Shown here: piece after piece, positions 3,777-8,700 of the stretch
How the letters are laid out: each line of letters begins with the position of its first letter
Numbering within the stretch: the stretch's first letter is position 1
NCBI RefSeq assembly: GCF_003790525.1
Contig: NZ_CP033635.1
Length of the DNA: 64,000 nucleotides
Reading direction: 5' to 3' (one strand)
Origin: Escherichia coli
GTDB lineage: Bacteria; Pseudomonadota; Gammaproteobacteria; Enterobacterales; Enterobacteriaceae
Made by a program: the position numbers and the translations under genes
The notes under the pieces: generated by a model
What the model saw: the letters and a program-made list of their open reading frames with translations, nothing else
What the model was told of the DNA's origin: nothing
Database searches by the model: none

Positions 3777-4844
3777 ATGGATAAGAGTAAGCGCCATCTG
3801 GCGTGGTGGGTTGTCGGGTTACTGGCGGTGGCCGCTATTGTGGCGTGGTGGCTGTTGCGCCCGGCAGGTGTGCCGGAAGGCTTTGCCGTCAGCAATGGGC
3901 GCATTGAAGCGACGGAAGTGGATATCGCCAGCAAAATTGCCGGGCGTATCGACACCATTCTGGTGAAAGAAGGCCAGTTTGTTCGCGAAGGGGAAGTACT
4001 GGCGAAGATGGATACTCGCGTGTTGCAGGAACAGCGACTGGAAGCCATCGCGCAAATCAAAGAGGCACAAAGCGCCATTGCCGCCGCGCAGGCTTTGCTG
4101 GAGCAACGGCAAAGCGAAACTCGTGCCGCACAGTCGCTGGTCAATCAACGCCAGGCCGAACTGGACTCCGTGGCTAAACGTCATACGCGTTCCCGCTCGC
4201 TTGCCCAACGTGGAGCTATTTCTGCGCAACAGCTGGATGACGACCGCGCCGCCGCTGAGAGCGCCCGAGCTGCGCTGGAATCAGCAAAAGCCCAGGTTTC
4301 TGCTTCTAAAGCCGCTATAGAGGCGGCACGCACCAATATCATTCAGGCGCAAACTCGCGTCGAAGCCGCGCAAGCCACTGAACGGCGCATTGCCGCAGAT
4401 ATCGATGACAGCGAACTGAAAGCCCCGCGTGACGGACGCGTGCAGTATCGGGTTGCCGAGCCAGGCGAAGTGCTGGCGGCAGGTGGTCGGGTACTGAATA
4501 TGGTCGATCTCAGCGACGTCTATATGACCTTCTTCCTGCCAACCGAACAGGCGGGCACGCTGAAACTGGGCGGTGAAGCCCGGCTGATCCTCGATGCCGC
4601 GCCAGATCTGCGTATTCCTGCAACCATCAGTTTTGTCGCCAGCGTCGCCCAGTTCACGCCAAAAACCGTCGAAACCAGCGATGAACGGCTGAAACTAATG
4701 TTCCGCGTCAAAGCGCGTATCCCACCGGAATTACTCCAGCAGCATCTGGAATATGTCAAAACCGGTTTGCCGGGCGTAGCGTGGGTGCGGGTGAATGAAG
4801 AACTTCCGTGGCCTGACGACCTGGTGGTGAGGTTGCCGCAATGA
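3777..4844 (+). CDS. yhiI: HlyD-family membrane fusion protein YhiI
   Basis: 355 aa with an N-terminal TM helix and coiled-coil region; stop overlaps the rbbA start (ATGA). Confidence 0.9.
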
Positions 4845-7576
4845 CGCATCTGGAACTGGTTCCCGTCCCGCCTGTCGCGCAACTGGCGGGCGTGAGCCAG
4901 CATTATGGAAAAACCGTTGCGCTGAACAATATCACTCTCGATATTCCGGCCCGCTGTATGGTCGGGCTGATTGGTCCGGATGGCGTCGGGAAGTCGAGCT
5001 TGTTGTCGTTGATTTCCGGTGCCCGCGTCATTGAGCAGGGCAATGTGATGGTGCTGGGCGGCGATATGCGCGACCCGAAGCATCGCCGTGACGTTTGCCC
5101 GCGCATCGCCTGGATGCCGCAAGGGCTGGGCAAAAACCTCTACCACACCTTGTCGGTGTATGAAAACGTCGATTTTTTCGCCCGCCTGTTCGGTCACGAC
5201 AAAGCGGAGCGGGAAGTCCGAATCAATGATCTGCTGACCAGCACCGGGTTAGCACCGTTTCGCGATCGTCCGGCAGGTAAACTCTCCGGCGGGATGAAGC
5301 AAAAACTTGGGCTGTGCTGTGCGTTAATTCACGACCCGGAACTGTTGATTCTTGATGAGCCAACAACGGGGGTTGACCCGCTCTCCCGTGCCCAGTTCTG
5401 GGATCTGATCGACAGTATTCGCCAGCGGCAGAGCAATATGAGCGTGCTGGTCGCCACCGCCTACATGGAAGAGGCCGAACGCTTCGACTGGCTGGTAGCG
5501 ATGAATGCCGGAGAAGTGCTGGCAACCGGCAGCGCCGAAGAGCTGCGGCAGCAAACGCAAAGCGCCACGCTGGAAGAAGCATTTATAAATCTGTTACCGC
5601 AAGCGCAACGCCAGGCGCATCAGGCGGTAGTGATCCCACCGTATCAACCGGAAAACGCAGAGATTGCCATCGAAGCGCGCGATCTGACCATGCGTTTTGG
5701 TTCCTTCGTTGCCGTTGATCACGTCAATTTCCGCATTCCACGCGGGGAGATTTTTGGTTTTCTTGGTTCGAACGGCTGCGGTAAATCCACCACCATGAAA
5801 ATGCTTACCGGATTGCTGCCCGCCAGCGAAGGTGAGGCGTGGCTGTTCGGGCAGCCGGTTGATCCAAAAGATATCGATACCCGCCGTCGTGTAGGCTATA
5901 TGTCGCAGGCGTTTTCGCTCTATAACGAACTCACCGTGCGGCAAAACCTTGAGTTACATGCCCGTTTGTTTCACATCCCGGAAGCGGAAATTCCCGCAAG
6001 AGTGGCTGAAATGAGCGAGCGTTTTAAGCTCAACGACGTTGAAGATGTTCTGCCGGAGTCATTGCCGCTCGGCATTCGCCAGCGGCTTTCGCTGGCGGTG
6101 GCGGTGATTCATCGCCCGGAGATGTTAATCCTCGATGAGCCTACTTCTGGTGTCGATCCGGTGGCGAGGGATATGTTCTGGCAGTTGATGGTCGATCTCT
6201 CGCGCCAGGACAAAGTGACCATTTTTATCTCCACCCACTTTATGAACGAAGCGGAACGTTGCGACCGTATCTCACTGATGCACGCCGGAAAAGTGCTCGC
6301 CAGCGGTACACCGCAGGAACTGGTTGAGAAACGCGGAGCCGCCAGTCTGGAAGAGGCATTTATCGCCTATTTGCAGGAAGCGGCAGGGCAGAGCAACGAA
6401 GCCGAAGCGCCGCCCGTGATACACGACACCACCCACGCGCCGCGTCAGGGATTTAGCCTGCGCCGTCTGTTTAGCTACAGCCGTCGCGAAGCACTGGAAC
6501 TGCGCCGCGATCCGGTACGTTCGACGCTGGCGCTGATGGGAACGGTGATCCTGATGCTGATAATGGGTTACGGCATCAGTATGGATGTGGAAAACCTGCG
6601 CTTTGCGGTGCTCGACCGCGACCAGACCGTCAGTAGCCAGGCGTGGACGCTCAATCTCTCCGGTTCCCGTTACTTTATCGAGCAGCCGCCGCTCACCAGT
6701 TATGACGAGCTTGATCGCCGGATGCGTGCGGGCGATATCACCGTGGCGATTGAGATCCCTCCCAATTTCGGGCGCGATATCGCGCGTGGTACGCCCGTGG
6801 AACTCGGTGTCTGGATCGACGGTGCGATGCCGAGTCGCGCCGAAACGGTAAAAGGTTACGTGCAGGCCATGCACCAGAGCTGGCTACAGGATGTGGCGAG
6901 TCGGCAATCCACGCCCGCGAGCCAAAGCGGGCTGATGAATATTGAGACACGCTATCGCTATAACCCGGACGTAAAAAGCCTGCCAGCGATTGTTCCGGCG
7001 GTGATCCCGCTTCTGCTGATGATGATTCCGTCGATGTTAAGCGCCCTTAGCGTAGTGCGGGAAAAAGAGTTGGGGTCGATTATCAACCTTTACGTTACCC
7101 CCACCACCCGCAGCGAATTTTTACTTGGCAAACAGCTACCGTACATCGGGCTGGGAATGCTGAACTTTTTCCTGCTCTGCGCCCTGTCGGTGTTTGTGTT
7201 TGGCGTGCCGCATAAAGGCAGTTTCCTGACGCTCACCCTGGCGGCGCTGCTGTATATCATCATTGCCACCGGAATGGGGCTGCTGATCTCCACCTTTATG
7301 AAAAGCCAGATTGCCGCCATTTTTGGCACTGCGATCATCACGTTGATTCCGGCGACGCAGTTTTCCGGGATGATCGATCCGGTAGCTTCGCTGGAAGGTC
7401 CAGGACGTTGGATCGGCGAGGTTTACCCGACCAGTCATTTTCTGACTATTGCCCGCGGGACGTTCTCGAAGGCGCTGGATTTGACTGATTTGTGGCAACT
7501 TTTTATCCCGTTGCTGATAGCCATCCCGCTGGTGATGGGCTTAAGCATCCTGCTACTGAAAAAACAGGAGGGATGA
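4841..7576 (+). CDS. rbbA: Ribosome-associated ATPase RbbA (tandem ABC ATPase domains fused to an ABC-2 permease domain)
   Basis: 911 aa; two Walker A motifs ([16 protein letters not shown]) and two ABC signatures ([16 protein letters not shown]); hydrophobic C-terminal domain. Confidence 0.93.
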
Positions 7577-8700
7577 TGCGCCATTTACGCAATATTTTTA
7601 ATCTGGGTATCAAAGAGTTGCGCAGTTTGCTCGGTGATAAAGCGATGCTGACGCTGATTGTCTTCTCGTTTACGGTGTCGGTGTATTCGTCAGCGACCGT
7701 TACGCCAGGATCGTTGAACCTCGCGCCGATCGCCATTGCCGATATGGATCAATCGCAGTTATCGAACAGGATCGTTAACAGCTTCTATCGCCCGTGGTTT
7801 TTGCCACCGGAGATGATCACCGCCGATGAGATGGATGCCGGGCTGGACGCCGGACGCTATACCTTCGCGATAAATATTCCGCCTAATTTTCAGCGTGATG
7901 TCCTCGCCGGACGCCAGCCAGATATTCAGGTGAACGTCGATGCCACGCGCATGAGCCAGGCATTTACCGGCAACGGGTATATCCAGAATATTATCAACGG
8001 TGAAGTGAACAGCTTTGTCGCGCGCTACCGTGATAACAGCGAACCGTTGGTATCGCTGGAAACCCGGATGCGCTTTAACCCGAACCTCGATCCCGCGTGG
8101 TTTGGCGGGGTGATGGCGATCATCAACAACATTACCATGCTGGCGATTGTGTTGACCGGATCGGCACTGATCCGCGAGCGTGAACACGGCACGGTGGAAC
8201 ACTTACTGGTGATGCCGATAACGCCGTTTGAGATCATGATGGCAAAGGTCTGGTCGATGGGGCTGGTGGTGCTGGTGGTGTCGGGATTATCGCTGGTGCT
8301 GATGGTGAAAGGTGTACTGGGTGTACCGATTGAAGGCTCGATCCCGCTGTTTATGCTGGGCGTGGCGCTCAGTCTGTTTGCCACCACGTCAATCGGCATT
8401 TTTATGGGGACGATAGCGCGTTCAATGCCGCAACTGGGGCTGCTGGTGATTCTGGTGCTGCTGCCGCTGCAAATGCTTTCCGGTGGCTCCACGCCGCGCG
8501 AAAGTATGCCGCAGATGGTGCAGGACATTATGTTGACCATGCCGACGACACACTTTGTCAGCCTCGCGCAGGCCATTCTCTACCGTGGTGCCGGATTCGA
8601 AATCGTCTGGCCGCAGTTCCTGACGCTGATGGCAATTGGCGGCGCGTTTTTTACCATTGCGCTGCTGCGATTCAGGAAGACGATTGGGACAATGGCGTAA
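7573..8700 (+). CDS. yhhJ: ABC-2 family transporter permease YhhJ
   Basis: Start chosen at the ATG after AGGAGG, overlapping the rbbA stop (ATGATG), giving 375 aa; multi-TM ABC-2 permease. The ORF-track start at 7492 lies inside rbbA. Confidence 0.88.

Follow-up and report, generated by a model that had tools for sequence, protein, structure and literature searches.

The yhiI-rbbA-yhhJ operon of Escherichia coli most likely encodes an ABC-2 exporter that works with a membrane fusion protein

The genes yhiI, rbbA and yhhJ, which occupy positions 3777–8700 of a 64,000-nucleotide (nt) stretch of Escherichia coli DNA (contig NZ_CP033635.1, hereafter the window), can be compared with several described systems. 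YbhGFSR of E. coli, encoded by cecR-ybhG-ybhF-ybhS-ybhR, is regarded as a putative drug or cation exporter of the ABC-2 class of ATP-binding cassette (ABC) transporters, dependent on a membrane fusion protein (MFP) (PMC7190983). MacAB-TolC, like YhiI-RbbA-YhhJ, combines an inner-membrane ABC transporter with an adaptor of the HlyD family, and in E. coli its outer-membrane channel is encoded elsewhere. MacB is a homodimeric transporter of the FtsX fold (type VII), with one nucleotide-binding domain (NBD) in each chain. A further group, the ABC-F factors (EttA, Uup, YbiT and YheS), shares with RbbA the presence of two NBDs in one polypeptide and a reported action at the ribosomal E site. Both sides of RbbA are reflected in the name of its NCBIfam family NF033858, "ribosome-associated ATPase/putative transporter RbbA". 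Because of the gene makeup and the conserved neighbors described below, we consider the products of this locus to form an export pump in the membrane instead of a factor dedicated to the ribosome: yhiI-rbbA-yhhJ is most likely a single attenuated and coupled operon for an ABC exporter of the ABC-2 (type V) class that depends on an MFP.

YhiI-RbbA-YhhJ is a collinear paralogue of YbhGFSR. YhiI matches YbhG (30% identity, E 3e-30), residues 1–513 of RbbA match YbhF (about 40% identity), residues 539–875 of RbbA match YbhS (32% identity, E 2e-50), and YhhJ matches YbhR (24% identity, E 3e-33). From these collinear matches, RbbA is the fused equivalent of the ATPase (YbhF) and the first permease (YbhS), which are one chain here and separate proteins in the paralogous system. 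RbbA is without an insertion of ~70 amino acids (aa) after the first NBD (NBD1) that is present in more distant YbhF-like homologues. The junctions of ybhGFSR are likewise tight (−8, −8 and +10 nt). In place of the TetR-type regulator gene of the ybh operon (cecR), the yhiI operon has a long leader with a small upstream open reading frame (uORF), yhiY, and Rho-dependent attenuation. RbbA and YhhJ differ from MacB in their fold, which is ABC-2 (type V), in the presence of two NBDs within a single chain, and in having two permease halves that are not alike.

The domain content of the three proteins, all encoded on the + strand, is that of an exporter. The gene yhiI (3777–4844) encodes a 355-aa HlyD-family MFP, that is, a periplasmic adaptor with an N-terminal membrane anchor, matched in Pfam by HlyD_3, HlyD_D23, CusB_dom_1 and Biotin_lipoyl_2. 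A sequence search of the PDB gave EmrA and MacA as its nearest solved relatives, the match to MacA being weak (E about 1e-4). The 911-aa RbbA (4841–7576) is composed of NBD1 (~12–240), a short linker, NBD2 (~276–513) and an ABC-2 permease domain (~539–905), and was matched by two copies of ABC_tran and by ABC2_membrane_3 (residues 569–903). It scored 1597 bits against NF033858 (cutoff 1050), covering model positions 1–908 of 909, and is thus assigned to this equivalog family. Inspection of the motifs showed that NBD1 has Walker A, Walker B and the signature LSGGM and is without the H-loop histidine, while NBD2 has Walker A, Walker B and the histidine, with a degenerate signature (LPLGxRQR). 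From this pattern, which is kept across the family, one ATP site is predicted to be consensus and the other degenerate, a combination found in many heterodimeric ABC exporters; the Walker B glutamate of NBD2 (E433) is assigned to the predicted catalytic site and its NBD1 equivalent (E173) to the predicted degenerate one. Among solved structures, the closest sequence matches of the RbbA NBDs are those of the ABCA proteins.

The gene yhhJ (7576–8700) encodes a 374-aa ABC-2 permease with an extracytoplasmic domain between the first and second transmembrane segments and a Pfam match to ABC2_membrane_3 (residues 25–364), so that the two permease domains of the membrane part of an MFP-dependent ABC-2 exporter are both present, one in the C-terminal part of RbbA and one in YhhJ. 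YhhJ was modeled with AlphaFold2 from 72 homologues (pLDDT 83.5), and the model was compared with known structures by Foldseek. The best match was the permease and extracellular domain of the insect ceramide/lipid exporter ABCH-9C (E 1.4e-11, TMq 0.59), followed by NosY, ABCA, ABCG (ABCG25), KpsM and TarG. As modeled, the fold of YhhJ is that of a type V ABC exporter permease. The model aligns with the solved type V exporters (ABCH-9C, ABCA1/3/4/7, ABCG25, NosFY, KpsMT and TarGH) at a sequence identity of just 8–21%, and their substrates are not transferable to this system. To our knowledge, none of these solved exporters works with an HlyD-type adaptor, and KpsMT pairs with KpsE, of another adaptor family. 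The PDB sequence search returned only distant relatives of RbbA, YhhJ and YhiI, and no solved structure of the proteins themselves.

These features also separate RbbA from the ABC-F proteins, which are soluble and carry the linker domain ABC_tran_Xtn (PF12848) between their NBDs. RbbA has instead a permease domain of ~370 aa, its inter-NBD linker spans only ~35 aa in the orthologues, the Pfam search found no match to PF12848, and, unlike the ABC-F genes, rbbA shares a conserved operon with genes for an MFP and a permease. On the defining features tested, tandem NBDs free of a transmembrane domain (TMD) and the linker domain, RbbA is not an ABC-F protein.

The conservation of the locus was then evaluated. 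The best 120 matches to RbbA were all from E. coli or Shigella and too uniform to be informative, so the alignment for the genome scan was made from RbbA and ten full-length homologues (31–58% identity) retrieved from a library clustered at 50%. With one genome per species, the scan gave 80 RbbA loci (50–98% identity), distributed among alpha-, beta- and gamma-Proteobacteria, Desulfobacterota, Myxococcota, Lentisphaerae and others. A YhiI homologue was directly upstream of RbbA in all 71 loci with enough flanking sequence, and a YhhJ homologue was downstream in every locus with enough flank; in one locus it followed after a gap of 616 nt, and in one other RbbA was frameshifted. The order MFP-RbbA-YhhJ is therefore invariant across the 80 loci. 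Moreover, in 16–17 of 62 loci the MFP gene is directly adjoined, on its own strand, by a gene for an outer-membrane efflux protein (Pfam OEP). By phmmer, 16 OEP genes are co-oriented upstream neighbors, mostly abutting the MFP gene, and in three further loci the OEP gene lies just after yhhJ; overall, a gene of this family is adjacent in about 20 of 62–70 orthologous loci. By gene arrangement, these loci can be likened to HP1489–HP1486 of Helicobacter pylori (PMC9570263), an operon for an outer-membrane factor (OMF), an MFP and two ABC-2 permeases, whose ATPase is encoded elsewhere in the genome. A tripartite export-type assembly had been proposed from the sequence of the locus by an earlier reading of this DNA (hereafter the original prediction), and it is supported by the domain content, the paralogy to YbhGFSR, the invariant gene order and the adjacent outer-membrane efflux genes, and also by the tight gene junctions and the codon bias described next.

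The region 3300–9100 of the window is 100% identical to the chromosome of E. coli SMS-3-5, and the locus was found in 5413 of 5426 complete E. coli genomes (≥95% identity over ≥80% of this region). RefSeq places yhiY (3601–3714) before yhiI, rbbA and yhhJ, at the coordinates given above, and the same layout, with identical overlaps, is annotated in K-12 MG1655. At the first junction (4829–4844, + strand; ...GCAATGACG...), the rbbA ATG (4841–4843) and the yhiI TGA (4842–4844) form a 4-nt ATGA overlap at 4841–4844, exactly as had been predicted, and a Shine-Dalgarno (SD)-like GAGGT (4829–4833) is located 7 nt upstream of the rbbA ATG. Among the relatives, alignment-guided choice of the start codon gave a 4-nt overlap in 44 loci, and a start codon at −4 was present in 50 of 71 (ATGA in 32, GTGA in 16 and TTGA in two).

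The second junction (7566–7578, + strand; ...CAGGAGGGATGATGCGC...) contains AGGAGG (7566–7571) inside the last rbbA codons, the rbbA stop TGA (7574–7576) and two in-frame ATGs for yhhJ, at 7573 and 7576. The ATGATG preceded by AGGAGG had been noted correctly in the original prediction, and so had the overlap, although with a start of yhhJ that would make it 4 nt long. We assign the start to the second ATG (7576–7578), because AGGAGG is 1 nt from the ATG at 7573 and 4 nt from that at 7576, and because YhhJ homologues in other bacteria begin with "MR..." at the position of the second ATG. The RefSeq annotations of SMS-3-5 and K-12 also begin yhhJ here, with a product of 374 aa and an overlap of 1 nt. 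The alternative ATG at 7573 was thus rejected on SD spacing, annotation and homologue N-termini. A corrected start site had been named as a possible refutation of the overlaps; with the start moved to 7576 the overlap survives, and either ATG would overlap the stop.

Across the relatives, the gap at the second junction has a median of +2 nt and falls between −4 and +7 nt in 70 of 77 loci. The C-terminus of RbbA is ...KKQE plus one residue almost everywhere in the related loci, and it is these codons that hold the SD of yhhJ: CAGGAG is present in the tail codons of 44 of the 77 loci, and any 4-nt SD core in 62. In the 57 tails that contain Q-E, glutamine was encoded by CAG in 54 (42.6 expected) and glutamate by GAG in 46 (31.9 expected), the expected counts being taken from each gene's own codon usage (simulation P < 1e-4). 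Because synonymous codon choice is biased to CAG-GAG, the SD appears to be retained within the last codons of rbbA.

In a few E. coli assemblies, rbbA and yhhJ form a single fusion open reading frame (ORF) of 1283–1286 aa, which would encode a complete NBD-NBD-TMD-TMD transporter. These ORFs stem from differing single-base frameshifts within the final ~80 nt of rbbA (window 7492–7576), a stretch where such a fusion can arise since the yhhJ frame is open from 7492 onward. As they occur in near-singleton clusters with differing frameshift points, they are probably sequencing or assembly indels, and we rejected them as a natural variant.

The transcription of the operon has been described in part. 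A consensus scan identified a sigma-70 promoter at 3416–3443 (+ strand), with the −35 hexamer TAGACA, a 16-nt spacer and the −10 hexamer TACTAT with a TG extension; identical hexamers were reported by Shimada et al. (PMC3946193) as a constitutive RpoD promoter of "yhiI-rbbA-yhhJ". On the + strand from the yhiJ stop to the yhhJ stop, the scan found no other promoter-like site, and none within 3777–8700. The forward primer of a published fusion of the yhiI 5′ untranslated region (UTR) and ORF (GAGACTGTTGATAAAACG...) begins at window position 3450, 7 nt after the −10 hexamer (PMC7815308). On this basis the transcription start is taken as 3450, which gives a 5′ leader of 327 nt (3450–3776, + strand). 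An Rfam search of 3300–9100 at a permissive threshold gave no match, and hence no known riboswitch or leader family in this 5′ UTR. A riboswitch prediction study (PMC4448311) mentions the operon only because, of all gene sets, it is the closest to a candidate window some distance away, and was set aside as not relevant.

Within the leader, yhiY (3601–3714, + strand) is annotated as a small ORF of 37 aa. It was identified by ribosome profiling of initiation complexes (10.1101/511675), and yhiY-yhiI was named a candidate uORF-controlled unit (PMC7815308). Term-seq data of the same study (PMC7815308) place RNA 3′ ends 65 and 43 nt before the yhiI ATG (−65 and −43; K-12 3630667 and 3630645), which correspond to window positions 3712 and 3734 (+ strand). 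The one at −43, 20 nt beyond the yhiY stop, was flagged there both as Rho-dependent and as "uORF". A further Rho-dependent 3′ end lies 547 nt into yhiI (4324, + strand; K-12 3630055), and expression of the yhiI fusion was at least 2-fold higher in the rho R66S mutant (PMC7815308). The yhiY-yhiI spacing is identical in K-12 and served to transfer the K-12 ends to the window, while 4324 was placed by its offset from the yhiI start. The published promoter, leader uORF and Rho sites thus define the unit as yhiY-yhiI-rbbA-yhhJ with an attenuated entry. One promoter does stand upstream of all three transporter genes, in agreement with their predicted co-expression, but to call this co-expression obligate was too strong, since premature Rho-dependent termination in the leader and in yhiI modulates expression. 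In Citrobacter werkmanii, just the first 10 yhiY codons (MMTTLLP.FT) are kept in frame, and blocks of leader DNA are near-invariant regardless of frame: the start region of the uORF, TTCCTTCTTATCCCGGATGGAA, and the 60-nt stretch that leads up to the yhiI ATG. This pattern of conservation suggests an attenuator acting at the RNA level rather than a conserved peptide.

Taken as a whole, the region 3416–8700 is the yhiY-yhiI-rbbA-yhhJ transcription unit, annotated and published earlier, and nothing in the locus is novel. Since the operon, the promoter, the leader uORF and the dual label of RbbA are already in databases and the literature, the analysis has little discovery value. It has modest value for annotation: the functional description of RbbA rests on a truncated protein, one key paper was retracted in 2025, and the architecture, the paralogy and a conserved synteny that takes in MFP, permease and often OMF genes all favor an envelope exporter, at a loose end of E. 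coli annotation that is ~25 years old.

In the mechanism that we propose, a single transcript would start at about 3450 from the one sigma-70 promoter (3416–3443), and translation of yhiY together with Rho would set how many RNA polymerases enter yhiI. Ribosomes terminating at the yhiI TGA would be positioned on the rbbA ATG by the ATGA and could restart there; those finishing rbbA would unmask and reuse the AGGAGG in its last codons and so reach the yhhJ start, which overlaps the stop by 1 nt. Because initiation at yhhJ would follow termination at rbbA, the two permease halves would be made from one mRNA at linked rates. RbbA would supply both NBDs and one permease half and YhhJ the second half, forming a heterodimeric type V exporter with one catalytic ATP site, and YhiI would be the periplasmic adaptor to an outer-membrane channel, in E. 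coli probably TolC acting in trans. We infer physical assembly of the three proteins, TolC as the partner and the direction of export from the comparison with known systems, and the fold relatives suggest that the substrate may be lipid-like.

Some points weigh against an exporter made in this way. The searched literature contains no experiment showing a YhiI-RbbA-YhhJ complex, a transported substrate or TolC dependence, and in the RefSeq annotations of SMS-3-5 and K-12 the E. coli locus lacks a gene for an OMF. Since the 80 loci are related by phylogeny, both the counts and the P value of the codon bias overstate independence. A truncated RbbA free of its TMD has been described as a ribosome-stimulated E-site ATPase, and was still so used in 2025 (PMC12096078). 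In addition, rbbA and yhhJ each have their own SD, and independent initiation could suffice without coupling; in 100-nt windows, the RNA folds predicted at the two junctions did not exceed shuffled controls in stability (z = 0.32 and −0.70). The last two points bear on whether the overlaps are by-products of genome compaction, each gene initiating at its own SD with no termination-reinitiation. The overlaps are real but ordinary for bacterial transporter operons: among the 34 other same-strand neighbor pairs annotated in the window, there are six 4-nt and two 1-nt overlaps, the commonest spacings in operons, and all eight belong to the ugp, liv and nik ABC transporter operons. The drift of the second junction from −4 to +7 nt among homologues also fits compaction. 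Both junctions, however, combine a stop/start overlap with an SD inside the upstream coding sequence (the ATGA with GAGGT at 4829–4833, and TGATG at 7574–7578 with AGGAGG at 7566–7571), they stay tight across very divergent genomes while the flanking genes and GC content change, and synonymous codons maintain the SD at the end of rbbA; moreover, linked synthesis would probably benefit the subunits of one heterodimeric permease. On balance, translational coupling across yhiI-rbbA-yhhJ seems probable from the arrangement of these signals, and overlap by compaction alone is rather unlikely. No claim is made for coupling mediated by RNA structure, since the fold energies were indistinguishable from those of the controls; the 100-nt window around the yhiI start gave the same result (z = 0.85), and the SDs were paired in the minimum-energy folds of the windows examined.

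The ribosomal role raises the question of whether RbbA works mainly in translation, bound to the ribosome as an E-site ATPase that releases deacyl-tRNA, in which case the location of its gene between those for an MFP and a permease would reveal little of what it does. The truncated protein without the membrane domain does stimulate poly-Phe synthesis, modestly alters the incorporation of non-standard amino acids in vitro (1.3–2.1-fold) and competes with ABC-F proteins (PMC12096078). All of these ribosome activity data derive from the truncated protein, however, whereas RbbA has a full permease domain, no ABC-F linker domain and an arrangement of NBD motifs typical of asymmetric exporters; its gene order is invariant in the 80 loci, often with an adjacent OMF gene; and RbbA-mCherry was distributed throughout the membrane (PMC6788730). 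The report of Babu et al. (PLoS One 6:e18510, 2011), which linked RbbA to YhjD, 30S subunits and respiration, has since been retracted (June 2025) because concerns over images were left unresolved, and database text that relies on it may need revisiting. The ABC-F papers found in the literature search make no mention of "RbbA". We therefore regard a primary role in translation as very unlikely. A dual role, in which the tandem NBDs of a membrane exporter also contact ribosomes and the yhiY uORF/Rho attenuator senses ribosome stalling, would accommodate the ribosome-stimulated ATPase of the NBD fragment (PMC12096078) as well as the membrane location, the exporter architecture and the position of a Rho-dependent 3′ end, which lies 20 nt past the stop codon of a translated uORF. 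Direct evidence of ribosome contact by the full-length membrane protein was not found, though, uORF/Rho attenuators are common before ordinary transporter genes (e.g., mdtU-mdtJI; PMC7815308), and the YhiY peptide is not conserved past its first 10 residues in Citrobacter, so that this role too is improbable to a high degree. A bolder form of it, in which the membrane-anchored NBDs dock on ribosomes, export activity or substrate loading is tied to the state of translation, and yhiY/Rho switches the operon on upon stalling, is more speculative still; if true, a ribosome-docking exporter would reconcile the old biochemistry of the "ribosome-bound ATPase" with the transporter architecture. The reading of the locus as an MFP-dependent exporter operon is the one that we retain.

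Upstream of the operon, RefSeq lists a DUF4049 gene ending at 1527 and yhiJ (1789–3411). Both are same-strand ORFs with DUF4049 in Pfam and are AT-rich, as had been stated (34–39% GC versus 51–60% in the operon, with a sharp boundary at ~3500). They are, however, only loosely "immediately" upstream, as yhiJ stops at 3411 and yhiI starts at 3777, which leaves a spacer of 365 nt that contains the promoter, the transcription start and the small gene yhiY. The suggestion that yhiJ and yhiL could be co-transcribed or functionally linked with the transporter genes was rejected: the operon has its own promoter and transcription start, yhiJ has a separate, H-NS-associated promoter (PMC3946193), the GC boundary lies between them, and no DUF4049 homologue was found in any of the 80 related RbbA loci, E. 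albertii and Citrobacter included. The yhiL-like gene and yhiJ (window 85–3411) look like an E. coli-specific AT-rich insertion beside the operon; yhiL is intact in this genome and a pseudogene in K-12.

Downstream of yhhJ, the window, like SMS-3-5, has a hicA/hicB toxin-antitoxin pair (8701–9403), in which hicA is annotated as frameshifted; at this position K-12 has yhhI/yrhC/yhhH/rhsB. No intrinsic terminator-like site was found between yhhJ and hicA. The pair is preceded by a promoter-like site (TTGACT-16-TACTAT) and by repeated GATGTCATA / GAAGTCATA motifs, a possible operator. After hicB, the minus strand (9453–13000) carries genes for a class II aldolase, an HPr-family protein, an FGGY kinase and a galactitol-type IIC component of the phosphotransferase system, with gene overlaps of 11 and 8 nt; this cluster is absent from the corresponding K-12 stretch. 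Farther along the window (56602–59900), a DprA-family gene and a RecQ-family helicase gene overlap by 94 nt between yhgN and gntU. We take the K-12 gene order to be without this pair, which may be an accessory island.

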